From positions 1-23,673 of the forward strand of contig JANRJA010000155.1 of the NCBI GenBank assembly GCA_033764315.1: a stretch of DNA of 23,673 nt. The letters run 5' to 3'. The translations under genes were made by a program, and so were the position numbers. The notes beneath the pieces were generated by a model that saw only the letters and a program-made list of their open reading frames with translations, was not told where the DNA came from and ran no database searches. The stretch comes from Oculatellaceae cyanobacterium bins.114. Its GTDB lineage: Bacteria; Cyanobacteriota; Cyanobacteriia; Elainellales; Elainellaceae. Shown piece after piece: positions 732 to 23,546 of this stretch; position 1 is the first letter of the stretch, and each line of letters opens with the position of its first letter.

Positions 732-1919
732 ATGCGACATCGGCAAAACCTCATTGAACTCTTCTCAACCTTTATGCAATTTGCCGGTGATCGGTTTAGT
801 GGTTGGCTTTCAGATCCACGCCTAGAGCGAAATATGAAAGCCAACCTGCAACAACCTAATCCAGCTGTCAAAGAACTATCAGAATTTGTTTGGGCGTTGT
901 ATTGGCATGAGCGTTGGCGTAAATCTCCTCAAAGCCCTGCCGCGAGTCATCTTTCTGCTTATTTGCAAGAATCTTGCTACTGGGCAGCCTATAAGATGAT
1001 CAATCGTTTTACCAGCACCCCTTATAAACTGTCAGATTGCTTCCAAATTGCGATCGCAGACCTCCCTAAAATTCTCAATCGCTTTAGTGCGGCTCAAGGA
1101 TCTAGCCTCAAAGCTTATGCTAGTGCTGCTTTTGGCACGGCGATTCGAGACACCCTGCGACAACGACAAGAGGCAGATATTTGCTCTGACTGGGGGTTAT
1201 TACGCAAGCTGAGTCAAAAACGCTTTGTAGACGCATTGGGCATGGCAGGATTGCCTAATAGCAAAATTTCTCAGTATTCTCTCGCCTGGCTCTGCTTTAA
1301 GACTATTTATATTCCATCCAAGGGCACAGCAACACGACAACTGAGCCGCCCCGATCGAGCCACCTGGGAGGCGATCGCTGACCTTTATAACGGCGATCGG
1401 CTACAACTTAAAGACCCTGGGGTCGCATGCAGCCCTGAAATGATGGAACAGTGGCTAAAGTTTTGTGCCGATCGGGCACGCGCCTATCTCTATCCTCCAG
1501 CGTTGTCGCTCAATGCCCCAAAACCTGGATTAGACGATGGAGAATTGCAAGACGATTTACCCGACCCGACTGGAGAAGCACCTCTAAATTTGCTGATGGC
1601 GGCAGAAGAGGCTGAGGTTCGTGATTCGCAAAGAGAGCAAATCAATGCTGTGCTACTCAACGCTCTGCAAACCACCGATCCTGAAGCTCAACAACTGCTG
1701 CAACTCTATTACGGGGATGAGCTGACCCAGCTCCACATTGCTCAACAACTCGGAATTAAGCAATATGCTGTTTCCAGACGCTTATCCAAAACCCGAGAAA
1801 TATTATTACTGGCATTGGCAAGCTGGAGTCAGCAAGTATTGCATATTTCTCTCAGCTCAGACGTAGTTAGCCATATGAACGATGTACTAGAAGAATGGTT
1901 GTATAACCACTTTGAGTAG
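732..1919 (+). CDS. Atypical (group 3/4-like) sigma-70 family RNA polymerase sigma factor
   Basis: 395 aa. Region-2-like ILNRFSAAQGSSLKAYASAAFGTAIRDTLRQ; region 3/4 linker SLNAPK...ELQDDLPD; region-4 HTH LLQLYYGDELTQLHIAQQLGIKQYAVSRRLSK. Confidence 0.85.
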   Translation: MRHRQNLIELFSTFMQFAGDRFSGWLSDPRLERNMKANLQQPNPAVKELSEFVWALYWHERWRKSPQSPAASHLSAYLQESCYWAAYKMINRFTSTPYKLSDCFQIAIADLPKILNRFSAAQGSSLKAYASAAFGTAIRDTLRQRQEADICSDWGLLRKLSQKRFVDALGMAGLPNSKISQYSLAWLCFKTIYIPSKGTATRQLSRPDRATWEAIADLYNGDRLQLKDPGVACSPEMMEQWLKFCADRARAYLYPPALSLNAPKPGLDDGELQDDLPDPTGEAPLNLLMAAEEAEVRDSQREQINAVLLNALQTTDPEAQQLLQLYYGDELTQLHIAQQLGIKQYAVSRRLSKTREILLLALASWSQQVLHISLSSDVVSHMNDVLEEWLYNHFE

Positions 1920-1948
1920 AGCGTCGCTATTCACCACAAGGAGTGTAG

Positions 1949-3169
1949 ATGTTTTCGGGTTTTGAAACACCAAATCAATTTTGGTTAGAGATTCCGGCAA
2001 CGGTGCAAGCTGATGCTTGGCAGCAAAGCCAAGTCTTCTCTACCACCACAAGCCGTTGGAACGCTTATATCAATCAACTCTGTGTAGGAACGTTTTTGCA
2101 CTGGTGGCGTGATAACTCTCCATCTCAGTTGGGTGAAAAGGCTCAGGTAGCAGAACCCTCAACATCGCCTGAATTGTGGGAAGTGGTGAATGGTACTGCT
2201 CTAACACTCGATCACACTCGGTTGGTTCTAATTCCTTCAGAGGCGATCGACACGAGTGAACTGCGAACCCAGCAGGAATGGATCGATATTCCCAGTTGGG
2301 CAGGCGACTATTACCTCGCGGCTCAAGTCAATCCAGACGAACACTGGATTCGATTTTGGGGCTACACCAGCCATCAACACATCAAAGCGAACGGGCACTA
2401 TGAGGTGGGCGATCGCACTTATACACTGCCTTCTAATGCACTCATCGCAGATTTAAACGTGCTGTGGGTGATCCGCCAACTCAACGTTAAAGAAGAGACG
2501 CGAGGCGCGTTGACTCCTCTACCTGAATTAACCCTTGAGCAAGCCGAACTATTGTTACAACAACTTTCACGACCCATGTCTACTACCCATTCGTCTCGGT
2601 TCATGTTTTCATTTGAAATATGGGGAGCACTGCTGCAACATACCGAATGGCGATCGCGCTTGTTGAGCCAATACCACTCAACTCCGGTTGTTGCCACTCA
2701 ACCCACCACAGTCGCCGCCACTAGCCCAAGCCCAGTGCGCCTGAGCCAATGGTTTCAGGATGTATTTGAGGCAGGCTGGGAATCCTTGGAAACTCTGTTT
2801 GGAGAAGCCAACCTCGCTTACAGCTTCCGCAGAACTGAGACAGCAGAAGGCATTCGGCGGGTTAAATTAGTGTCGTTGGAAACTCCGTTGCAACCCCAAT
2901 TGGCAGTGCTGATGATCTCGTTGACGCCTGAGACTGACGGTAGAGTCGAGGTGCAAGTCCAATTGCGTCCTACCCCAGGGGATGTTTATCTACCCGCAGA
3001 CGTGTCGTTGAATCTCCTGTCAATCGCATCTCAACCATTACAATTTGCGCGATCGCGTCAACAAGATAACTACATTCAACTCAAGCGGTTTAAGTGCTTA
3101 CCAGGGTGGGAATTTATCTTGCAGATCGAGTTTAATGGAGCTATCGTCACCGAACACTTCATCAGCTAG
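1949..3169 (+). CDS. DUF1822 family protein (candidate anti-sigma/partner protein)
   Basis: 406 aa with AAGGAG RBS at 1938-1943. Family-like motifs WEVVNGTAL, QEWIDIPSWAGDYYLAAQV and LSQWFQDVFEAGW, plus a C-terminal beta-rich domain (DNYIQLKRF...EHF). Starts 29 bp after the sigma gene. Confidence 0.8.
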   Translation: MFSGFETPNQFWLEIPATVQADAWQQSQVFSTTTSRWNAYINQLCVGTFLHWWRDNSPSQLGEKAQVAEPSTSPELWEVVNGTALTLDHTRLVLIPSEAIDTSELRTQQEWIDIPSWAGDYYLAAQVNPDEHWIRFWGYTSHQHIKANGHYEVGDRTYTLPSNALIADLNVLWVIRQLNVKEETRGALTPLPELTLEQAELLLQQLSRPMSTTHSSRFMFSFEIWGALLQHTEWRSRLLSQYHSTPVVATQPTTVAATSPSPVRLSQWFQDVFEAGWESLETLFGEANLAYSFRRTETAEGIRRVKLVSLETPLQPQLAVLMISLTPETDGRVEVQVQLRPTPGDVYLPADVSLNLLSIASQPLQFARSRQQDNYIQLKRFKCLPGWEFILQIEFNGAIVTEHFIS

Positions 3170-3192
3170 ACCCACACTACAATGCCAACACT

Positions 3193-5586
3193 ATGGGGCA
3201 ATTAGTCGTCTTAAACTTGGGCAGAGGCAATTGGCAGCAGGGGTTTCCGACTGTGATTGCTCAACTTTGGGAGGCGGGCGCAGCACCCATGCAATTTACA
3301 GGCAGTTTGCCAGCCATACCAGAGTTAGAAACTCTTTATGAACAATGGCGATCGCTCTATGAGGCTCTATATGCAGGGCTGCATTGGCGACGGTTATCGT
3401 CTGATCCGGTGCCTGAGATTGAAATTTTAGAAGACGATGTCACCAATGTCTCAGAAACCGAGTTTTTCGCGCTTTGTCGAGACTTGCAAGTGCGGCTAAA
3501 CGCCTGGTTAGATTCTAGAGAGTTTCGCAAAATCGATCGCAGCTTAAGAACTCGTTTGCACCCCGGTGATGAGGTGAGGCTCATCATCACGGCTGAAGAC
3601 AACACGATATTGCGTCTGCCCTGGTGTTTGTGGCAATTTTTAGACGATTATCCTAACGCTGAAATCGCGCTTAGCCCGTTTGAATATCGTCGGTCGATCA
3701 AGTCTGGCATTTCCAGAACTCACGATCAGGTGAGAATTTTGGCAATTTTAGGTAATCCCGATGGCATCGATATAGAGCGGGATCGCCAACTGTTAGAGCA
3801 ACTCCCTAATGTAGAGCTGATTTTTTTGGTTGAGCCTGATCTGGAAACGCTCAACCAATATCTGTGGGGATCAAGCTGGGACATTTTGTTCTTTGCTGGA
3901 CATAGCTCCAGTCATCAAGGCGGGCAGATGCAACTCAACGCCACTGAGAGCATCAGCATTGAGCAATTACGCTATGGTCTCAAACAGGCGATCGCCAATG
4001 GGCTAAAACTGGCTATTTTCAATTCCTGTGATGGGTTAGGGCTAGCCCATGACTTAGCCGATCTACACATTCCACAAGTCATCGTCATGCGGGAACCAGT
4101 GCCCGATCGGGTAGCTCAAGAGTTCCTAAAATCTGTACTCCCTGCTTTTGCCAGTGGGCAATCTCTCTATAAAGCTGTTCGTCAAGCAAGAGAGCATCTC
4201 CAAGCGATCGAGCATGACTTCCCTTGCGCCACTTGGCTCCCAGTTGTTTGTCAAAACCCTGCCGAAGAACCTGTTTTTTGGCAAGATTGGTGCGTCCAAC
4301 CACGCCCCACTGAACCTATCACCGTCTGGCAACGCTGGATAAAACGCCTACCTACTCGCCGCCAACTAGGGCAAGGGCTAGCAGCTAGCATTATGGTCAC
4401 AGGGACACTGTTAGGAGTGCGTTGGCTGGGTTGGTTAGAACCGCTTGAACTCAAAGCATTAGATCATCTGCTGCAAGTCCGCCCCCACGAGAAGCCTGAT
4501 CCCCGTCTTTTGGTGATTACGATCGATGAGGCAGATATTCAAGCTCAAGGGCAAGATCAACGCCGCAGTTCACTGTCAGATGCAACCCTGACTCAACTTT
4601 TAGCCAAATTAGAACAAGCCGATGCCCAAGTGATTGGGTTAGATGTTTATCGAGATTTTTCGGTTGAGGCCGATCAACCCCAATTGGTCGATCAGTTGCG
4701 TCAGGGCGATCGCCTGATTGCGGTCTGCAAGAGCCGCGATCCAGAGGTTGACTCGTTTGGCGTTGCCCCACCCCCTGAAGTGCCTGAGACGCGGGTCGGC
4801 TTTAGCGATTTTCTCAAAGACGAAGATGGAATCGTGCGGCGACATCTCTTGTCGCTGACCCCTGATCCGCTTTCTCGCTGTGCCTCTGCCTATGCATTTA
4901 GTAGCCAAATTGCCTTTCATTACCTGGAAGCACAAGGCATTTCGGCGCAGTTTACCCCCACTGGCAATCTCCAGATTGGTCAGACTGAGTTTCATCGATT
5001 GCGCAACCGCTATGGCGGATATCAGTCGGTTGATGCTGGGGGCAACCAGATTTTGCTCAATTATCGTGCCCTGTCTCATCCTGATAAGATTGGGGCTCAA
5101 GTGACGCTCACCGAATTTTTGCAAAATCCAGTGCAACCCAACTCATTGCGAGACAAAGTTGTCCTGATTGGGGTGACTGCTGCTAGTGGTGGAGACTATT
5201 GGGCAACTCCCTATGGAGCAGATGCTTTTAGAGAACTATCAGGGGTGTTTGTGCAGGCTCATATGGTGAGTCAAATCATCAGTGCCGTGTTAGATGGGCG
5301 ATCGCTGTTGTGGGTCTGGTCAGGGTGGCAAGAGGGTCTGTGGATCTTGAGTTGGGCGATCGTTGGTGGAGGTCTTGCCCTTTGCCTGCGCCAAAAACAA
5401 CGGGTGATTGGGGTGATCGTAATGAGTGCGGCCCTTTATGGAACCTGTGTTGTATTGATTATTACAGGAGGATGGGTGCCCCTTATTCCTTCTGCTGTGG
5501 CGTTAGTGACCACTGGCGGCATTATGACCTACCTCAAAACAAAATCTCTTAATCCAGCCAGCTTCTCCGAAAAGGGATCAGCATGA
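3193..5586 (+). CDS. CHAT (caspase-like) domain + CHASE2 sensor domain membrane protein
   Basis: 797 aa. N-terminal CHAT motifs LPW, FFAGHS (His237, 3901-3903), IFNSCDG (Cys279, 4027-4029) and VMREPVPD. One TM at about aa 395-415, then CHASE2 motifs PDPRLLVITIDEADI, IGLDVYRD, DEDGIVRR, KVVLIG and GVFVQAHMVSQI, then three C-terminal hydrophobic helices. Confidence 0.9.
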   Translation: MGQLVVLNLGRGNWQQGFPTVIAQLWEAGAAPMQFTGSLPAIPELETLYEQWRSLYEALYAGLHWRRLSSDPVPEIEILEDDVTNVSETEFFALCRDLQVRLNAWLDSREFRKIDRSLRTRLHPGDEVRLIITAEDNTILRLPWCLWQFLDDYPNAEIALSPFEYRRSIKSGISRTHDQVRILAILGNPDGIDIERDRQLLEQLPNVELIFLVEPDLETLNQYLWGSSWDILFFAGHSSSHQGGQMQLNATESISIEQLRYGLKQAIANGLKLAIFNSCDGLGLAHDLADLHIPQVIVMREPVPDRVAQEFLKSVLPAFASGQSLYKAVRQAREHLQAIEHDFPCATWLPVVCQNPAEEPVFWQDWCVQPRPTEPITVWQRWIKRLPTRRQLGQGLAASIMVTGTLLGVRWLGWLEPLELKALDHLLQVRPHEKPDPRLLVITIDEADIQAQGQDQRRSSLSDATLTQLLAKLEQADAQVIGLDVYRDFSVEADQPQLVDQLRQGDRLIAVCKSRDPEVDSFGVAPPPEVPETRVGFSDFLKDEDGIVRRHLLSLTPDPLSRCASAYAFSSQIAFHYLEAQGISAQFTPTGNLQIGQTEFHRLRNRYGGYQSVDAGGNQILLNYRALSHPDKIGAQVTLTEFLQNPVQPNSLRDKVVLIGVTAASGGDYWATPYGADAFRELSGVFVQAHMVSQIISAVLDGRSLLWVWSGWQEGLWILSWAIVGGGLALCLRQKQRVIGVIVMSAALYGTCVVLIITGGWVPLIPSAVALVTTGGIMTYLKTKSLNPASFSEKGSA

Positions 5587-5751
5587 GGTGTTTTACAGAT
5601 CAGCAAAGGAGTTGTGCAGCCTGTTTTCATCTATACAATCTTGATGACACAGTAACTCAGATCTAACTCAGTAACAGGATAAGTCCTCTGTATGTTTTTC
5701 AAAGTACTGCCCCAAATGGCATAACCAATGGCAATTTCTTTCTAACTCAGC

Positions 5752-5847
5752 TATAGCGACTGTTAATACTTTTGATACAAAGGAGTGTAGGGGCTGTGCT
5801 CCCAACTAGGGGTTCACCCCATCCCAACCCACTCTTCAGTTGCTATA
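5752..5847. mobile_element. MITE-like element with 11-bp imperfect terminal inverted repeats
   Basis: TATAGCGACTG (5752-5762) and CAGTTGCTATA (5837-5847) match at 10/11, with TA at both ends and a GC-rich GGGG/CCCC core. Confidence 0.6.
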
Positions 5848-5939
5848 TCCAACGATTAAACAGATTGTTGACATTGGGCGATCGCGAAACAGTGTAAAAA
5901 TCTCAAGAAATTGAAGCCATTCTCAGCAAGTTAATTGTA

Positions 5940-5980
5940 TAGATGTGTCAATTTAGATCCGTAGATGTGTCAAATTAAAT
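5940..5980. promoter_or_regulatory. Direct repeat, candidate transcription-factor site upstream of DUF928 gene
   Basis: TAGATGTGTCAA at 5940-5951 and 5962-5973 (22-bp period; 17/19 identity when extended). Confidence 0.4.
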
Positions 5981-6246
5981 AGGTAGGTTATTTAGTTTTT
6001 ACTCTGTTTAATGTTCTTTAGTATTAGATTCCACTGGGGAAGCACTAACGATTCTCTGGTTCTAAGCAAAATGAAGTACATGCAGTGCAGAAACCCTATC
6101 TAAACACCTTTTTGGCTCTCCATTGGGTTTGGAACGACATCCATCCATTTGAAGCAATGCTCATCAGTGTCTTAACAGGCTGCAACCATTCAAGTCACGC
6201 CGATACCGATCCTCAAACCCAAATCCCAATACGCTAGAGGTCAACG

Positions 6247-7029
6247 ATGCTTGGAATTCAGCCCCCATCTCACTTTATGCGCTCTGTTTGTAGTTTTGGT
6301 TTACTAACTACGAGTCTTTTCACCCTTGCTTTTCAGCAACCTGCTCAGGCAATCGGTCATCAGCTCCACCTGAGCCAGATTGTTTTTGCAGCACCTCAAC
6401 CTCCTGCTGACCAAGGCGCGCCATCAGGCAGACGACAAGGGGGAGCAAGCCGTGGCCCTTGCCGTGACTATGAAAACCTGACTGCTTTGACCCCTGTCAC
6501 TTCACAAGGCAAAGTTTGGGGACTCACAACCCTCGATCGTCCAACCTTCTGGTTCCACATTCCCAACAATCTGGGAAATGACGTTCCGATCGAGTTTGTT
6601 TTACAAGATGAGGCTGATAACTATGTTTATCGCACAGCTTTCGATGCGCCTACAACGCAATCTGGCATTATCAACATTGATTTATCCTCCTCATCCGAAA
6701 CCTTAGAAGTCGGCAAAACCTATTATTGGACATTCTCGATTTACTGCGATGCGGCTCATCCCTCAGCATCTGTGTTTGTCAGGGGATCGGTAGAACGAGT
6801 CCCTCTGCCAGATAACTTGGAACAGCAACTCAGAACAGCTAACCCATTAGAGCAAGCTTTCTTGTATGCCGCTAATGGGATTTGGCACGATGCGTTAACC
6901 CAGTTAGCCCTTCTAAAGCAGACCAATCCCAATGATTTACGCATTAATACCGCTTGGGTTGAGTTGTTAGAACAAGCAGGTCTAGAGGCAACTGCCACGG
7001 CTCCGATCGTGCCCATGCTGCACCCTTGA
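6247..7029 (+). CDS. DUF928 domain protein, likely secreted
   Basis: 260 aa. Signal-peptide-like N-terminus (…LFTLAFQQPAQA) and family-like motifs PSGRRQGGASRGPC, PTFWFHIP, LEVGKTYYWTFSIYC and YAANGIWHDALT. Alternative start ATG at 6277. Confidence 0.85.
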   Translation: MLGIQPPSHFMRSVCSFGLLTTSLFTLAFQQPAQAIGHQLHLSQIVFAAPQPPADQGAPSGRRQGGASRGPCRDYENLTALTPVTSQGKVWGLTTLDRPTFWFHIPNNLGNDVPIEFVLQDEADNYVYRTAFDAPTTQSGIINIDLSSSSETLEVGKTYYWTFSIYCDAAHPSASVFVRGSVERVPLPDNLEQQLRTANPLEQAFLYAANGIWHDALTQLALLKQTNPNDLRINTAWVELLEQAGLEATATAPIVPMLHP

Positions 7030-8655: not shown

Positions 8656-9861
8656 ATGAAACTGGGCTGGCGTGTTGGTTCTATCTTTGGCATTCCGCTA
8701 TTTATAGATATCTCATGGTTCTACATTTTGGCATTGATCACCTTCTGGTATGGCGGTTGGGTTTGGCGCGATCGCGATTGGAGCACCCCCGTAGCATGGA
8801 GTGCAGGCTTTGTTATGGCTTTACTGCTATTTACCTCAGCCGTTTTGCATAAGTTAGGGCACAGTTTGGTAGCGCGATCGCAGGGCATTCCTGTCAACTC
8901 TATTACCCTATTTTTGTTTGGGGGAATTGCCGCCATTGACCAGGATGAATTCAAAACCCCTTATCAAACCTTTCAAGTGGCGATCGCAGGCCCAACGGTT
9001 AGCTTCGTCCTCTTCCTGCTACTCATCTCTATAGTGCGGTTGTTTGCTTTCTCCGATCCCACGGCTACCATTCTAGAAGAGCTAGCTTGGCTCAACTTAG
9101 TGCTGGCTTTGTTTAACATGATCCCCGGTTTGCCCTTAGACGGTGGGCAGGTTCTCAAATCTGCTATTTGGAAGATCACGGGCAGTCATCTCAAAGGCAT
9201 TCGATGGGCCGCCAGAATTGGACAGGCACTCGGTTGGGTTGCCATTATCCTATGTTCGATTGCCTTTTTAACCTCATCCAATCTGTGGTTTTTGTGGATT
9301 GCTTTTTTAGGTTGGTTTGTGATTCGCAATGCCACTACCTACATGCGAGTTTCTGACTTACATGAGGCACTGCTGCAACTGCATGCCTCAGCAGTGATGA
9401 CTCGTAATTTTCGAGTGGTCGATGCCAATTTGAGCATCCATGAATTTGCTCAAACCTATCTATCTCAAGAAACATCCTCTCCTTTATTTTTTGCCGTTTC
9501 TGATGGACGGTATCAGGGCATGCTAGCGGTCAATGAATTGGCTCATTTGGAACGAAGCACCTGGGATAGCCAAACCTTAGAGGCGATCGCCCATCCCTTA
9601 AATAAAATTCCGACTGTTACAGAAATAACCTCGTTAGCAGTTGTCATCCACTCTTTAGAGTTCCATCAATTACGCTCTATTCCGGTGCTCTCTCCAACAG
9701 GGTCAGTTGCGGGCGTGATCGATCGGGGTGATATTGTGCGAGCGTTAACTGACAAGTTGAATATTTCTATTTCAGAAGCCATCATCACCCGTGTAAAAGA
9801 CGAGGACAGCTATCCACCCGGATTGCCCCTGGCGGCGATCGCCAAGTCACTCGTCAGATAA
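8656..9861 (+). CDS. Site-2 protease (peptidase M50) with C-terminal CBS pair; HExxH altered to HKLGH
   Basis: Multiple TMs, ITLFLFGGIA, VAIAGP, FNMIPGLPLDGG and CBS-like C-terminus (VMTRNF, GVIDRGDI). The zinc motif reads LHKLGH. Confidence 0.92.
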   Translation: MKLGWRVGSIFGIPLFIDISWFYILALITFWYGGWVWRDRDWSTPVAWSAGFVMALLLFTSAVLHKLGHSLVARSQGIPVNSITLFLFGGIAAIDQDEFKTPYQTFQVAIAGPTVSFVLFLLLISIVRLFAFSDPTATILEELAWLNLVLALFNMIPGLPLDGGQVLKSAIWKITGSHLKGIRWAARIGQALGWVAIILCSIAFLTSSNLWFLWIAFLGWFVIRNATTYMRVSDLHEALLQLHASAVMTRNFRVVDANLSIHEFAQTYLSQETSSPLFFAVSDGRYQGMLAVNELAHLERSTWDSQTLEAIAHPLNKIPTVTEITSLAVVIHSLEFHQLRSIPVLSPTGSVAGVIDRGDIVRALTDKLNISISEAIITRVKDEDSYPPGLPLAAIAKSLVR

Positions 9862-11646: not shown

Positions 11647-13959
11647 TTACTGTGAGACTTGAGATAGCCTATCTTCATGATTGAGGCAAGCTTTGACCGG
11701 AATTTCAATGACAAATTCTGCTCCCTGACCAGGAGCCGAGTGGCAGTAAAGCTTACCGCCATGCTTCTCGACAATAATTTGATAGCTAATCGATAAGCCC
11801 AATCCAGTTCCTTGGCCAACAGGTTTGGTAGTAAAGAACGGATCAAACAATTTAGAGCGCACCTGTTCACTCATCCCAGCACCGTTATCAATGATATGGA
11901 TCGCAACCCAAGCAGCGTTAATCGCTTCGGTACGAATGCGAATGTGGCTCAAACTCGTCTTACCTGCATTACGCTCTTGTTCTCGATTTTGTTGATGAAG
12001 AGCATCAATTGAATTGGTGAGCAAATTCATAAATACCTGGTTGAGTTGACCCGCGTAACACTGCACTAACGGCAACTGACCATATTCTCGAATCACTTCG
12101 ATGGCTGCATAACCAGGTTTGGCTCTTAAGCGACTATGCAAAATCATCAATGTGCTATCAATTCCTTCGTGAATATCAACCTCTTTAACTTCTGCTTCAT
12201 CAAGGCGTGAAAAAACCCGCAAAGACTTGACGATCTCTCGAATACGATCGGCTCCAAGTTGCATCGAGTTCAACAGTTTTGGTAAATCTTCACGAATGAA
12301 ATCGAGATCGATCGCATCCATTTGGTCTTCAAGTCCAGGAAAAGAATTGATGCAATGCTTCTCACAGAAATCAACTAATTCCAATAAATCACGGGTATAT
12401 TGATGCGCATGACACAAGTTACCGTGAATAAAGTTGACTGGATTGTTAATCTCGTGGGCAATTCCAGCAATCATTAACCCCAAACTCGACATCTTCTCAG
12501 TTTGAACGAGTTGGGCTTGGGTTTGTTGAAGGTTGTTAAGAGCCTCTTTTAAGGCAACCGTTCGCTCTTCAACTCGTTGTTCTAGAGCTTCGTTAGTTTG
12601 TTCTAAAACTGTAAATGATTCACGAAGTTGTTTTGCCATGCCATTAAACGATTGGGCTAAAACATTCAGTTCTCTAATACCTTGAACCTCAACCATCTGA
12701 TTTAAGTCACCCAAAGTAATCGCACTACTGGCAGTGCTAAGTTTGCGAATCGGGGTTGTAATCCAGCGAGAGGCAAGCATACTCATTAACGTTGCTAACC
12801 CCAAGGCTGCTGACACCAACCCAACTGTTGTATTCGCATTAGCCTGGTTAATCCCTTCTAAATAGTTAGATTCTGGAATAACAGTGCCAACAACCCAATC
12901 TAAATAACCAATCGGGGCTAGAGAAATAAAATACTTTTCCCCCAATGGCCCATCTTGATACGTAAAAGTTCGCTCATCTGTGACACTGCTAATCGAGGCT
13001 TGATTGGTTCTCAAGGTTTGAACAGCTACTTGCAAATAAGAATTATTTGCCTCCTCTAATCGCTTTAACCGAACTGTGTCATTGATGACAATATAAGTTG
13101 ATTCTTGTGAGTCTGACGTTGCAATGATTTCACTTTTAGAATTAGCAATAAAAATAATACTTTTACCTTCTCGATCGAGCGTTTGAAGGTATTGTGAAAT
13201 TTGTTTTAGCTCAAACGAGATATTAATAACCCCAATAAACTTATTGTTTAGCCTAAGTGGCATAGATGAGCTAATCCCCGGTGTCCGCGTTGCCCGAAAC
13301 ATATAGACATCACTCCAAGACAATCGCTCTGGGTTTTGAGCTGCAATTTGATACCACGGTTGTCGAGGTGAATAGTATTGATCCACCATCTCTTGAGTAC
13401 CAGTTATACGAAGTTCTGAGCTGCCTTCTTGATAACTGACAATTCTATTAGACGAGTGCTGATCTTGAGGAATCCAACGACGATTAATGACATTGAGTTC
13501 ATCTTGTTGAGTATTTTGAACCCCAAAATAGTCCCCATTTCGATAGCCAAATTCAATGGCAGTAAAACTTGGATTAGCCTCCAACAAGCTGAGGTAGAAA
13601 GCTTCTCTCTCTCGTGGGTTTTCTAAATTAACAAGATTACGAGTAAAAGCTCTTTGAATAATGTTTTGAGTTGATGAAACACTACTAAAAATATTACCCA
13701 CTTCTTGAAATGTGCCTCGAGTGAGTTCTTTATTAACTTGAGTAATGACGCTGTCAACATTCCGCTTTGACAGAATCAACCAAGAAAAATGAACAACTCC
13801 AGCAGTGGCACTGATGGTAATCAGAATTGCCCCTATCAATGTTGCCCTCAGACCAAGCGTACTGGGTTGTTTCTCTGAGGTGCGATGTTTGCGTAGTGAC
13901 ACAATCAGGCGCATGTAAACTGAGGATTTTAAGCTTCGACTGCGATGAAGACGAGGCAA
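11647..13959 (-). CDS. Membrane sensor histidine kinase (TM-Cache-TM-HAMP-HisKA-HATPase)
   Basis: YSPRQPWYQ/WSDVY Cache motifs; HAMP ITTPIRKLS...RELNVLAQSFNGM; H-box GIAHEINNP; N-box QVFMNLLTNSIDA; DNGAGM; FDPFFTTK; GTGLGL. Start uncertain (TTG 13959 or ATG 13914). Confidence 0.92.
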   Translation of the reverse strand: MPRLHRSRSLKSSVYMRLIVSLRKHRTSEKQPSTLGLRATLIGAILITISATAGVVHFSWLILSKRNVDSVITQVNKELTRGTFQEVGNIFSSVSSTQNIIQRAFTRNLVNLENPREREAFYLSLLEANPSFTAIEFGYRNGDYFGVQNTQQDELNVINRRWIPQDQHSSNRIVSYQEGSSELRITGTQEMVDQYYSPRQPWYQIAAQNPERLSWSDVYMFRATRTPGISSSMPLRLNNKFIGVINISFELKQISQYLQTLDREGKSIIFIANSKSEIIATSDSQESTYIVINDTVRLKRLEEANNSYLQVAVQTLRTNQASISSVTDERTFTYQDGPLGEKYFISLAPIGYLDWVVGTVIPESNYLEGINQANANTTVGLVSAALGLATLMSMLASRWITTPIRKLSTASSAITLGDLNQMVEVQGIRELNVLAQSFNGMAKQLRESFTVLEQTNEALEQRVEERTVALKEALNNLQQTQAQLVQTEKMSSLGLMIAGIAHEINNPVNFIHGNLCHAHQYTRDLLELVDFCEKHCINSFPGLEDQMDAIDLDFIREDLPKLLNSMQLGADRIREIVKSLRVFSRLDEAEVKEVDIHEGIDSTLMILHSRLRAKPGYAAIEVIREYGQLPLVQCYAGQLNQVFMNLLTNSIDALHQQNREQERNAGKTSLSHIRIRTEAINAAWVAIHIIDNGAGMSEQVRSKLFDPFFTTKPVGQGTGLGLSISYQIIVEKHGGKLYCHSAPGQGAEFVIEIPVKACLNHEDRLSQVSQ

Positions 13960-14217: not shown

Positions 14218-14289
14218 GCGGGTGTAGTTCAGTGGTAGAACGTCAGCTTCCCAAGCTGAATGTCGTGGGTTCGAGTCCCATCACCCGCT
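14218..14289 (+). tRNA. trnG: tRNA-Gly (anticodon CCC)
   Basis: Acceptor stem GCGGGTG/CACCCGC plus discriminator T; D-arm GTTC-AGTGGTA-GAAC; anticodon arm TCAGC-TTCCCAA-GCTGA (CCC at 14250-14252); T-loop GTTCGAG. CCA not encoded. TG-n-TATTCT extended -10-like element at about 14200-14208. Confidence 0.97.
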
Positions 14290-18524: not shown

Positions 18525-20792
18525 TCATCGCACCACTTCGCCCATATAGTTGCCCCAAAGTTCAGCCGCTTGAGCACTTGCCCCCGATGTTGGAGTATTG
18601 TCATCATTTCCAAACCAAATCCCTGTGACCAGGTTACGACTCGGAATATAACCCACAAACCAAAGATCGCGATTATCGTTATTCGTGCCTGTTTTGCCAG
18701 CTTCACCTAATCCTAGATAAGCATTCCGTCCGGTACCGTTACGAATGACTCCTTGCAGCAAATCAGTCATTGTATCTACAACTCTTGCTTCTAAAACAGC
18801 GACATTCATCTGAGGATCAGTCGCAACATCGTAAATCACCCGACAGGTCTCGAGATTATTAGGGTCAGTGCAATCACTACTATCTAAAATCCGATTAATG
18901 GCATGGGGACGGTTCCATGTTCCTTGATTGGCCAGCGTTCCGTAAGCTCCGGTGAGTTCTAATAAGGTAACTTCGCTTTGTCCTAAAACTAACCCTGGCA
19001 CCGGATTTAAGTCTGACTTAATTCCCATCCGGTGAGCGGTGTTGACTATCTGATTAAGCCCTACCTCTTGAGCAATTCTGAGTGCAATCACATTTTCAGA
19101 AAGGGCTAAGCCTGTGGCTACATCCATGCTGTTGACCCTAGAGCGGCATCCCTCAAAAGATTGCCCGCCCCAATCAAGACTCTCACAGGAGTAAGATTTG
19201 CCAGGTGAGATGCCCTGCTCAATCGCGGCAGTATAGGCAAACACTTTGAAGGTCGAGCCAGGTTGACGCAGGGCTTGAGTAGCCCGATTAAACTGGCTTT
19301 CTTGAAAGTCATATCCTCCTACCAGGGAGAGCACCCCACCTGTACTAGAGTCAAGCATCACCAACGACCCTTGAGAAAACCCAGAGGATGCCCCGTTGTT
19401 GTCGATCGCCGCTCGCAATGCCGTTTCTGCTCTCGTTTGAAAGCGAGGCTCTAGGCTGCTTTCAACGATAAAGTTGCCTTCTTGAGCCAGTTCTCGACCT
19501 AATAGAGCCTCTAACTCATCAAACACATAGCTATAAAAGTAGGGAGCAATAGTGCTTCGGAGTTCTTCAACCGCCGCTGGATTAATTTCAATCCGCGATC
19601 GCCTTGCCCGTTGAGCCTCTTGAGTACTGATCATGCCTTGAGCCGCCATCCGATTAATCACGCGATCGCGCAACTCTACGGCTGCGTCATAATCTTGAAC
19701 GGGGTTAAAGGCATTAGGGGCAGGCAAAATACCAGCGAGAGTCGCAGCCTCAGAGATCGATAAATCTTGTGCTGATTTACCAAAATAAAACTGAGCCGCA
19801 TCTTCAAAGCCATAGGTGCCATTACCTAAATAGACCCGATTGAGATACATCAACAACAAATAGTTCTTGCTGTAATAGGTTTCCAGCTTTAGTGCTACAA
19901 CTGCCTCACGCAATTTGCGTCCAGCCGAGTCATCCGTGCCGACATAGTCTCGAAAAATACTGCGCGCCAGTTGCTGGCTGATGGTGCTACCCCCCTCTCG
20001 AATCTCTCCTCCCCGAATATTGGTCAACAGGGCACGCAAGATCCCAATCGGATCAATGCCCATATGCCAGTAATAGCGAGAATCTTCAGAGGCAAGCACT
20101 GCCTGCGGCAAGTAAGGGGAAAAGTCTGAAAGCCGCTGCATCTCAATATGAGCGCGATTGCGTGGCTCTCGCAAAGGGGTTTGGCGATCGCGTGCATAAA
20201 CCACAACCGGACCTTGAACCGAAGTCGGCAACGGATACACAGCAAAGCGTTGCCATTGCACCGCCATCCACAACGCCACCAACGCACTGACCCCAGTGAA
20301 CCCATACAACCCATAGCGCAAAGCTTTAGCGTACCAAGGGGGTGGATCAACGTACTGCAACCGCACAGAAGCCGCTAACTCTGGTGGCCCTAAGGTCAAA
20401 ACATCACCATGTCGCAGTTCTAACGTGTTAAGACGACGCTTCCCCCGATAAATTCCATTGGTCGAGTTTTCGTCTTTAATCAAAAAGGGAGTTCTGCGCC
20501 CTCCCATGCGGGTCAATGAGAGGTGAACTTGGCTGACAACCGGATTTCGCACCACAATGTCACAGGATTTAGAACTGCGCCCCAGCAGATATCGCTCTCC
20601 TAACAAGGGGTAGTTATCTGCCTTGGGTGATTCTGCCTCCTGCACCAATAACTCTGGCACTCTTGCATTGGGCTTCAAAATCAGTTTAGAGAAATTGATT
20701 TTTGCCTGAACTGTTTGAACGGCTTGAGTAATCACGTTCAACAGAGTCTTGGGCTGATTGGGGGGTGGAGGAGGCGTTTGAGGTGAGGTCAT
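18525..20792 (-). CDS. FHA-domain class A penicillin-binding protein (transglycosylase/transpeptidase)
   Basis: FHA motifs LGR..., SQVH and STNG; one TM; glycosyltransferase EDSRYY.H.G, GGSTISQQL, RKLRE and YLNRVYLG; transpeptidase QPGSTFK (SxxK), SEN and KTG. Confidence 0.93.
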   Translation of the reverse strand: MTSPQTPPPPPNQPKTLLNVITQAVQTVQAKINFSKLILKPNARVPELLVQEAESPKADNYPLLGERYLLGRSSKSCDIVVRNPVVSQVHLSLTRMGGRRTPFLIKDENSTNGIYRGKRRLNTLELRHGDVLTLGPPELAASVRLQYVDPPPWYAKALRYGLYGFTGVSALVALWMAVQWQRFAVYPLPTSVQGPVVVYARDRQTPLREPRNRAHIEMQRLSDFSPYLPQAVLASEDSRYYWHMGIDPIGILRALLTNIRGGEIREGGSTISQQLARSIFRDYVGTDDSAGRKLREAVVALKLETYYSKNYLLLMYLNRVYLGNGTYGFEDAAQFYFGKSAQDLSISEAATLAGILPAPNAFNPVQDYDAAVELRDRVINRMAAQGMISTQEAQRARRSRIEINPAAVEELRSTIAPYFYSYVFDELEALLGRELAQEGNFIVESSLEPRFQTRAETALRAAIDNNGASSGFSQGSLVMLDSSTGGVLSLVGGYDFQESQFNRATQALRQPGSTFKVFAYTAAIEQGISPGKSYSCESLDWGGQSFEGCRSRVNSMDVATGLALSENVIALRIAQEVGLNQIVNTAHRMGIKSDLNPVPGLVLGQSEVTLLELTGAYGTLANQGTWNRPHAINRILDSSDCTDPNNLETCRVIYDVATDPQMNVAVLEARVVDTMTDLLQGVIRNGTGRNAYLGLGEAGKTGTNNDNRDLWFVGYIPSRNLVTGIWFGNDDNTPTSGASAQAAELWGNYMGEVVR

Positions 20793-22967: not shown

Positions 22968-23546
22968 TCACAATTCTCTTAACTGATTCTCAATCCAAGT
23001 GGAATTAAATACTTCTCGATAAATAGAGTTTTTAACTCGTAGAATACCTTCATGATTTTCGACCAAACCTGACAATAATAACTCTGTCGATTCTAGAGTG
23101 CAATCCATTGGAATATTAGGAGATTTCAATATCTGCTGATATAGCTCTAACAATCGTCGTGCTTGTTGTTTATTTCGCAACAGGTAATCACGAATAGTAC
23201 GTAGATGTTCGGGTTGATCTTGAGTTTCCCAATTTTGGATAATGTGCGATCGCACTAATTGTTCGACCCACAGCAACTCAGTACCGGGTGGAAAAAACCG
23301 TTGATTGACTGCAACTTGGCTGGCTTGCACAACAAGCTGGCAGACTTTTTGCGTCAGGAAAGGTTGTCCTCCAGTCCAGGCTAAAATCGACCGCAAAATC
23401 GCTTGAGGATTACATACCCACTTCAACAGCCCTGTAATGAGAGGTTGAGCTTCGCTCTCTTGAAAGCCTTGCAATTCAATTAAGCGTCCGATATCAGAAG
23501 GGGTATCAGGATAATCTAGAGGCACTTCGTCTAGGGAGCATGTCAC
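22968..23546 (-). CDS. Stand-alone C-terminal (post-P-loop) part of a cyanobacterial AAA_35-like domain; possibly a gene fragment
   Basis: TPSDIGRLIELQGF, ILAWTGGQPFLTQKVC, IIQNWETQDQPEHLRTIRD, ELLLSGLV and LRVKNSIYREVF..W motifs. No Walker A/B in the ORF; GTG start. Confidence 0.7.
   Translation of the reverse strand: MTCSLDEVPLDYPDTPSDIGRLIELQGFQESEAQPLITGLLKWVCNPQAILRSILAWTGGQPFLTQKVCQLVVQASQVAVNQRFFPPGTELLWVEQLVRSHIIQNWETQDQPEHLRTIRDYLLRNKQQARRLLELYQQILKSPNIPMDCTLESTELLLSGLVENHEGILRVKNSIYREVFNSTWIENQLREL

Follow-up and report, generated by a model that had tools for sequence, protein, structure and literature searches.

How can the activity of a sigma factor be tied to an event outside the cell? 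This question is raised by four co-oriented genes near one end of contig JANRJA010000155.1 (GenBank assembly GCA_033764315.1) of Oculatellaceae cyanobacterium bins.114, a stretch of 23,673 nucleotides called the window here. In order, these genes encode a sigma-70 factor of the extracytoplasmic function (ECF) type, a DUF1822 protein, a protease in which a caspase-like CHAT domain is joined through a transmembrane (TM) segment to a CHASE2 sensor, and a DUF928 protein with a signal-peptide-like start. Cyanobacteria commonly encode CHASE2, DUF1822 and DUF928, but we know of no function or ligand for any of the three. A first-pass annotation, made from the sequence alone, had proposed that an outside signal activates the CHAT protease, which then cleaves DUF1822, acting as an anti-sigma factor, and frees the sigma factor. 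The analysis reported here leaves about an even chance that this is correct, in which case a sensor-protease in the membrane would control a sigma/anti-sigma pair. The core of this explanation is backed by conserved synteny and by a controlled prediction of binding between the first two gene products.

The family assignments proposed at the outset were recovered with Pfam and NCBIfam models. The sigma factor matches TIGR02937 (sigma70-ECF, NCBIfam) over residues 76-361 with 102.3 bits, against a cut-off of 42.9, and the Pfam model Sigma70_r4 with 31 bits against 24.1; Sigma70_r2 itself stayed under its cut-off (16.4 bits against 24). DUF1822 is covered by the whole of PF08852 (309.9 bits, profile positions 1-370 of 370) and DUF928 by the whole of PF06051 (195.3 bits, positions 1-184 of 184). 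In the protease, PF12770 (CHAT) scores 50.1 bits on residues 205-356, with a cut-off of 24, and PF05226 (CHASE2) 224.5 bits on residues 404-726. The coordinates of the open reading frames (ORFs) likewise confirm the orientation of the four genes and the gaps of 29 and 23 bp between the first three, the fourth following after 660 bp.

The conservation of this arrangement was evaluated in the 80 closest DUF1822 loci out of at least 579 stretches (one genome per species), a sample whose counts describe this subfamily only. ORFs were assigned in it with profiles built from the window proteins. At least 1.3 kb of upstream sequence was present in 77 loci, at least 2.6 kb of downstream sequence in 75, and both in 72. 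A sigma gene lies directly upstream of DUF1822 and on the same strand in 73 of the 77 loci. Directly downstream, a CHAT gene of the same type, hereafter EACC2-CHAT from a name given to its N-terminal domain, is found in 70 of the 75, with CHASE2 in 67 of these. Sigma, DUF1822 and EACC2-CHAT occur together in 64 of 72 loci, an arrangement far beyond chance. The median gap is 2 bp between sigma and DUF1822 and 126.5 bp between DUF1822 and CHAT. The synteny anticipated by the first-pass annotation therefore stands for this three-gene core, but the DUF928 gene accompanies it in certain clades only, as detailed below. All loci are labelled cyanobacterial save two "uncultured bacterium" metagenome-assembled genomes (MAGs) and one Crocinitomicaceae bin. 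The latter locus (L059, JAKVAR010000137.1), from a MAG assigned to the Bacteroidota, groups tightly on the tree with a unicellular cyanobacterium and is thus probably a binning error, not a gene transfer.

A second line of evidence comes from the prediction of a sigma:DUF1822 complex, which the first-pass annotation had suggested as a check. With sigma and DUF1822 alignments drawn from the same 43 loci as input, the three runs scored 0.87, 0.86 and 0.85 (median 0.86); three controls were run alongside, and the highest of them scored 0.00. The prediction clears its pass mark, which 116 of 157 solved complexes and 2 of 215 mismatched pairs attain, a calibration that is approximate with self-made alignments. 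The runs share at least 88% of their contacts and the predicted local distance difference test (pLDDT) of the partner is at least 79. The predicted interface comprises sigma residues 136-167, 191-225 and 326-387 and DUF1822 residues 2-40, 97-106, 129-141 and 159-182. On the sigma side, DUF1822 would thus touch the end of region 2 with the adjoining insertion, the recognition helix of region 4 (343-360) and the C-terminal extension; on the DUF1822 side, the contacts would be confined to the N-domain. Anti-sigma factors sit over these two regions of their sigma, and the model supports a binding of DUF1822 in this manner. The recall of a similar known complex is an unlikely explanation for this result, because DUF1822 has no relative among solved structures: a fold search of the Protein Data Bank (PDB) with its model returned no match at E<=0.001 and a PDB sequence search nothing better than E=0.15.

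The two presumed partners have the following architecture. The sigma factor is conserved over its full length in an alignment of 44 sequences, including both extensions and the insertion between regions 2 and 4. TIGR02937 is matched by every one of the 44. A motif, R250-YLYP-x3-SLN261, is invariant in this alignment and is followed by a variable acidic stretch. A profile search with this alignment collected 2624 proteins at E<=0.001; at the stricter E<=1e-30, the family counts 339 clusters. The AlphaFold2 model of DUF1822 (pLDDT 85.6) consists of an alpha/beta domain and a beta-sandwich, with two low-confidence loops in the linker between them. Residues 288-298 belong to this interdomain loop, with pLDDT <50, and include Arg294, which is conserved in at least 90% of 44 DUF1822 sequences. 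By analogy with HetF, discussed below, the linker motif containing this arginine is a candidate protease site. The nearest relative of this DUF1822 protein among the matches listed is 80% identical (Oscillatoria sp. FACHB-1407), and PF08852 is carried by all 120 listed of 353 matches.

Two groups of shorter DUF1822 proteins were noted besides. Proteins of 240-249 aa (P0395-P0401) join XRE-type helix-turn-helix (HTH) domains (PF13443, PF12844, PF01381) to the C-terminal part of DUF1822, which suggests that the linker and beta-sandwich form a separable regulatory module. Others, of 225-270 aa and located on long contigs (e.g. P0132, P0148, P0158, P0227 and P0241), are reduced to the N-domain and seem to be genuine short forms rather than fragments.

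The third protein has the features expected of a receptor-protease. The intact His237 and Cys279 pair described by the first-pass annotation was found at these positions and is invariant in the 74 EACC2-CHAT proteins of the related loci. Topology was judged from hydropathy alone, for this protein and for DUF928, and agrees with a TM segment linking CHAT to CHASE2: residues 395-415 reach a moderate Kyte-Doolittle value of 1.28 over 19 residues and are preceded by 5 Lys/Arg in 20 residues. On the other side of CHASE2, residues 714-771 are strongly hydrophobic. In 67 loci the EACC2-CHAT proteins end in CHASE2, and in two they continue into nSTAND1-WD40, namely L001 (1733-6178, 1481 aa) and L033 (9724-14331, 1535 aa), both without DUF928. 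From these architectures, the sensor part appears to be exchangeable, the N-terminal constant domain and CHAT being retained.

Put together, these elements suggest the following pathway. The N-domain of DUF1822 would bind the insertion-bearing ECF-type sigma factor over its region 2, over the -35-recognition helix of its region 4 and over its C-terminal extension, and would thereby keep it off RNA polymerase or promoters. The receptor-protease would expose its constant domain and CHAT to the cytoplasm and, beyond a TM segment, CHASE2 to the periplasm. An extracellular cue would change CHAT activity through CHASE2, and CHAT would then cut DUF1822, most plausibly in the interdomain linker after Arg294, freeing the sigma factor.

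The logic of this putative pathway matches, by analogy, that of heterocyst control in Anabaena sp. PCC 7120, where HetF cuts PatU3, the inhibitor of sigma-HetZ. HetF is described as a cytoplasmic CHAT domain followed by a TM segment and periplasmic TPRs, and it cuts PatU3 after Tyr116-Arg117 (PMC9457339). PatU3 sequesters HetZ (PMC9457339); it binds HetZ, and HetZ without residues 289-401 loses this binding (PMC7377430). PatU3 is regarded as the likely anti-sigma factor of sigma-HetZ, which it contacts at i1, i3 and sigma-4 (PMC13342950). By this description, HetF resembles the window protease, in which a CHAT domain on the cytoplasmic side is likewise presumed to be joined through a TM segment to a part in the periplasm, and the catalytic cysteines are similarly placed, at position 295 in HetF and 279 in the window. 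HetZ (401 aa) and the window sigma (395 aa) are both of the ECF type and carry additions at the N-terminus, internally and at the C-terminus. The additions i1, i2 and i3 of sigma-HetZ (PMC13342950) find counterparts, by position only, in the window blocks 1-75, 147-300 and 361-395. The inhibitor gene directly follows the sigma gene in hetZ-patU, as does the gene of the presumed inhibitor in the window. PatU3 contacts sigma-4 and the C-terminal part of HetZ, as DUF1822 is predicted to do on the window sigma, and the aromatic-Arg pair after which HetF cuts has its possible equivalent in the conserved aromatic-Arg motif of the DUF1822 linker.

The two systems nevertheless differ in several respects. 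The hetF gene is unlinked to hetZ-patU, whereas the protease gene of the window is inside the cassette, and the periplasmic part is made of TPRs in HetF and of CHASE2 here. The HetF equivalog model NF045509 (NCBIfam) gives the window protein 21.3 bits against a cut-off of 1200, over residues 201-283 only. Region 4, by the residue numbers published for HetZ, comes about 50 residues later in the window sigma.

The gene neighbourhood itself is already in print, contrary to the first-pass annotation, which knew of no description of this unit. Kaur, Iyer, Burroughs and Aravind (eLife 2021, PMC8195603) found genes of the EACC2-caspase-CHASE2 type in the vicinity of those for an ECF sigma and DUF1822. 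Their products are composed of a constant N-terminal EACC2 domain, a caspase domain and a variable C-terminus which can be CHASE2 (PMC8195603). They proposed a stimulus-induced autopeptidase activation leading to transcription, so that the coupling of protease activation to an ECF sigma was put forward there as well, and placed the EACC2-caspase proteins among conflict systems (PMC8195603). The architecture of the window protein agrees with the description of this family. That work is computational; in the parts examined, it gives no role to DUF1822, called a TPR protein, and does not mention DUF928 (PMC8195603). The TPR label is ruled out by the AlphaFold2 model described above. A DUF1822 structure without TPR repeats and the prediction of its binding to sigma are therefore added here to the published neighbourhood, and a literature search on a CHASE2-CHAT-sigma unit or on EACC2 found nothing further.

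Other systems release sigma factors by proteolysis. In type III CRISPR, Csx29 (TPR-CHAT)/Csx30/CASP-sigma and CalpL/CalpT/CalpS are protease-released ECF sigma factors. As in the pathway proposed for the window, a protease cuts a sigma-binding partner and alters transcription, and Csx29 is also a CHAT protease; these systems are activated by target RNA or cyclic oligoadenylate, and not by a membrane sensor as in the window. The window is devoid of CRISPR or Cas genes, unlike type III-E Craspase loci, in which Cas7-11, Csx30 and Csx31 genes accompany those of the CHAT protease and the sigma, no Cas domain being found with Pfam in its 15 largest ORFs, and the NCBIfam type III-E sigma model gives 15.7 bits against a cut-off of 100. 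As for a transmembrane route dispensing with kinases, to which the first-pass annotation had drawn attention, the concept is already exemplified by RseA, whose cleavage by DegS and RseP conveys an envelope signal to an ECF sigma with no kinase or second messenger. RseA spans the membrane and its proteases are of the serine and site-2 types, whereas the presumed inhibitor of the window is a soluble protein, and sensor and protease are combined in one molecule.

The position of DUF928 in this scheme is less central. The hydrophobic N-terminus of the protein, ending in AQA at residues 33-35, agrees with the signal peptide proposed in the first-pass annotation. A G-x-P-x-G-R-x-x-G-G-x-S-R-G-x-C motif just past it is common to the family in an alignment of 33 sequences, and the window protein ends in ...PIVPMLHP, without the C-terminal Cys-Cys of most of these relatives. 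Its AlphaFold2 model (pLDDT 84.5) matches only generic beta-sandwich and carbohydrate-binding folds. Of 64 loci, 22 have a DUF928 gene within 1 kb past the CHAT-CHASE2 gene and 30 have one at any position. When the presence of DUF928 is mapped on a DUF1822 tree from a quick maximum-likelihood search, it requires 7 changes, against 25.8 in shuffles, and none of 500 shuffles was as low. A clade of 27 rows that includes the window has DUF928 in 24, two of the three exceptions being loci whose CHAT protein is without CHASE2; in a 35-row Nostocales clade with CHASE2, no DUF928 gene was found within 8 kb. This absence indicates that DUF928 is not an obligatory part of the cassette.

A link between DUF928 and CHASE2 is nonetheless visible elsewhere. 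In seven plasmid loci chosen from 27 records matching DUF928, its gene adjoins a CHASE2 gene in five, the cytoplasmic partners varying between TIR, AAA-like or DUF1822, and a large CHAT protein adjoins DUF928 in four. A Planktothrix plasmid carries an AAA-like gene directly before a CHASE2 gene and DUF928. This adjacency lends support to a possible link of DUF928 with CHASE2. On the basis of gene order, DUF928 is best described as a secreted protein that in some lineages probably assists CHASE2 sensors. It might act as a co-sensor or ligand carrier, or its gene might be one of the targets.

Three other explanations have to be weighed against a sigma/anti-sigma pair. CHAT might spare DUF1822 and either activate itself by self-cleavage or cut sigma, the variable acidic linker 262-290 being one conceivable place, with DUF1822 as an adaptor or scaffold; the output would then be a negative regulation or the release of a soluble protease. 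This agrees with the "autopeptidase activation" put forward by Kaur et al. (PMC8195603), with the succession of the invariant R250-YLYP-x3-SLN261 motif and a variable acidic stretch in sigma, and with three loci where DUF1822 and CHAT-CHASE2 have no sigma gene nearby. The predicted interface of DUF1822 on sigma regions 2 and 4 is inhibitor-like, however, and the sole CHAT protease of the same architecture with a known substrate, as described for HetF, cuts a sigma inhibitor (PMC9457339), so that this possibility is considered unlikely. An effect of opposite sign, with DUF1822 as a chaperone or co-activator needed for sigma stability or promoter recognition, would fit the tight coupling or overlap of the two genes (median gap 2 bp), as in many obligate pairs, and the prediction gives binding, not the sign of its effect. 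Its contacts take up surfaces that an activator must leave free, namely the end of region 2 and, in region 4, the recognition helix, and a positive role is accordingly judged very unlikely.

The cassette might also serve conflict or kin discrimination, as a counter-invader immunity or a response to toxins secreted by neighbours, CHASE2 reading envelope or exoprotein cues and sigma driving defence or self-destruction; such a role is compatible with a sigma/anti-sigma mechanism. The surroundings of the related loci speak for it. A TPS-domain exoprotein is encoded near the cassette in 20 loci and a standalone CHAT protein of 464 aa in 26, often directly upstream of sigma; RTX-repeat proteins and an ABC/HlyD exporter with beta/gamma-crystallin genes are also recurrent. 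The neighbours in the plasmid loci comprise ShlB/FhaC, large CHAT proteins and TIR- or AAA-linked CHASE2 genes next to DUF928. At least four genomes among the 80 loci harbour two cassettes, and copies reside on the conjugative plasmids pCC7120alpha (Nostoc sp. PCC 7120) and pNPUN03 (N. punctiforme). These secreted-protein genes and multiple copies fit a sensing of other cells or invaders, and the EACC2-caspase proteins were put among conflict systems by Kaur et al. (PMC8195603). On the other side, none of the four cassette proteins matched a PADLOC model of anti-phage defence, and a Pfam scan places the window copy amid housekeeping genes, e.g. trpF and a penicillin-binding protein, with no mobile-element, TPS or RTX gene around it. 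A conflict role is consequently rated as quite unlikely.

The sigma/anti-sigma explanation can be extended into a broader one, which is possible but doubtful. DUF1822 would constitute a large unrecognised class of PatU-related anti-sigma factors, and the cassette the general, sensor-coupled form in which a CHASE2-gated CHAT protease cuts after a linker arginine and frees a HetZ-like sigma. HetF, PatU3 and sigma-HetZ would be one specialised descendant of a module present in cyanobacteria in hundreds of copies, and DUF928 with the neighbouring secreted proteins would supply or present the cue. Leads that speak for the sigma/anti-sigma explanation as well come from look-alikes in the Atlas language model: "PatU" clusters are the nearest neighbours of DUF1822 outside PF08852 (score 0.82, 170-173 of 256 features), and a "HetZ-related" cluster with PF28104 ranks fifth for the window sigma (score 0.90, 172 of 256 features).

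A number of observations weigh against the sigma/anti-sigma explanation or its extension. The complex is a prediction, the known anti-sigma domains (class I ASD, zinc-binding ZAS) find no counterpart in DUF1822, which matched no anti-sigma family of Pfam or NCBIfam, and the activation proposed by Kaur et al. is autoproteolytic, not a cleavage of DUF1822 (PMC8195603). Some loci are incomplete: in L039, L043 and L068, DUF1822-CHAT/CHASE2-DUF928 is preceded by glgC, and the 8 kb on the upstream side contain no sigma gene, and L038, L062 and L076 have sigma-DUF1822 with no CHAT gene within 8 kb. The Atlas links to PatU and HetZ are leads only, since sequence searches did not confirm homology, and the tool itself states that one in three shuffled proteins attains a score of 0.82. 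When profiles of DUF1822 were searched, those of residues 75-245 (120 listed of 177 matches) and 262-406 (E<=10, 120 listed of 123) gave no PatU-named protein among the matches listed, all of them PF08852, and an NCBIfam scan of 44 DUF1822 proteins (E<=10) gave scattered single matches, with no PatU family among those listed. The 15-residue HetZ fingerprint, taken from published HetZ residues, occurs in none of the best 150 sigma relatives, the best match being 6/15, and in no ORF of the related loci; Pfam and NCBIfam scans of 44 sigma proteins returned no HetZ family among the matches listed, and no HetZ chain was found in the PDB search. Finally, neither of two motif searches found an autoregulated promoter motif.

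In the first of these searches, applied to 48 non-redundant regions upstream of sigma, the top bipartite 5-mer/4-mer pattern occurred in 6, against 4 in shuffles. The second looked for 6-mers enriched upstream of the sigma, DUF928, standalone-CHAT and TPS genes and yielded A/T-rich or single-clade words alone. The words TAGTTGCT and AACTGCTT were rejected as promoter motifs, being limited to one Nostoc subclade and placed 8 or ~40 bp before the start codon. The -35 (DIF1) motif of HetZ, TCCGGA, is found in none of 62 sigma, 25 DUF928 and 15 standalone-CHAT (c4) upstream regions and in one of 18 TPS upstream regions.

Two further remarks concern individual loci. A possible identity of L038, L062 and L076 as hetZ-patU was discarded, NCBIfam giving generic sigma families only. 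L024 (Lusitaniella coriacea) has no sigma gene; a CHASE2-adenylate/guanylate cyclase gene (4961-6895) precedes its DUF1822-CHAT/CHASE2 pair, and two tandem DUF928 genes follow downstream (11802-13556).

The features of the window are collected in Table 1. The spacer preceding DUF928 contains no terminator-like site, Rfam match or ORF of at least 60 aa, and its length makes a separate promoter for DUF928 probable. Past trpF, at 1.6 kb on the downstream side of the cassette, lies the gene of a protein with Peptidase_M50 (site-2 protease family) and CBS domains. Proteases of this family are classical processors of anti-sigma factors, but this gene was set aside as a part of the cassette because none of the related loci examined has an M50 gene nearby. 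Further away, a class A penicillin-binding protein (transglycosylase and transpeptidase) bears an N-terminal FHA domain, and a tRNA gene is the sole Rfam match in the window. The start of a 192-aa ORF matches positions 181-246 of 331 of the AAA_35 ("AAA-like domain") profile; as the match begins in the middle of the profile, this ORF looks truncated.

Table 1. Position of the cassette genes, of their domains and of other features in the window (nucleotides of the window; ranges in the last column are residues of the encoded protein)
Feature	Position	Strand	Description
Sigma-70/ECF-type sigma factor gene	732..1919	+	395 aa; TIGR02937 and Pfam Sigma70_r4; N-terminal extension ~1-75, region 2 ~76-146, insertion of ~150 aa and linker 147-300, region 4 308-360, C-terminal extension 361-395
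DUF1822 gene, candidate anti-sigma factor	1949..3169	+	406 aa; PF08852; alpha/beta N-domain 1-245 (predicted sigma-binding), variable linker, C-terminal beta-sandwich 300-406
Linker motif of DUF1822	2813..2830	+	LAF-x-F-R in the family; AYSFR with Arg294 in the window
CHAT-TM-CHASE2 receptor-protease gene	3193..5586	+	PF12770 and PF05226
N-terminal constant domain	3193..3792	+	Residues 1-200; conserved in 74 proteins; by position, EACC2 of Kaur et al. 2021
CHAT (caspase-like) domain	3793..4302	+	His237 codon 3901-3903, Cys279 codon 4027-4029 (nucleotides)
Putative first TM segment	4375..4437	+	Residues 395-415; hydropathy, after the basic stretch WIKRLPTRR
CHASE2 sensor	4402..5370	+	Residues 404-726; PF05226; presumed periplasmic
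C-terminal hydrophobic segments	5332..5505	+	Residues 714-771; putative TM helices, hydropathy 1.6-2.46
Spacer between CHAT-CHASE2 and DUF928 genes	5587..6246		660 bp
DUF928 gene, secreted protein	6247..7029	+	260 aa; PF06051; signal-peptide-like N-terminus 1-35, G-x-P-x-G-R-x-x-G-G-x-S-R-G-x-C motif, beta-sandwich 90-184, four helices 189-243
Peptidase_M50 and CBS domain protein gene	8656-9861	+	Site-2 protease family
tRNA gene	14218-14289	+	Rfam
Class A penicillin-binding protein gene	18525-20792	-	N-terminal FHA domain
ORF with partial AAA_35 match	22968-23546	-	192 aa

The gene neighbourhood and an experimentally studied pathway of the same logic in the same phylum are thus already known. 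What is new here is the predicted sigma:DUF1822 complex, the folds of DUF1822 and DUF928, the association of DUF928 with CHASE2 in particular clades, the candidate cut site and the lead that the heterocyst switch may be related. The presence of the cassette on plasmids of the genetically tractable Nostoc sp. PCC 7120 and N. punctiforme makes each step of the proposed pathway directly testable. If DUF1822 is indeed an anti-sigma factor cut by the neighbouring CHAT protease, a family of uncharacterised sigma factors would gain a regulatory logic, CHASE2 would gain a readable output, and the heterocyst switch formed by sigma-HetZ, PatU3 and HetF, defined only recently, would gain an evolutionary context.

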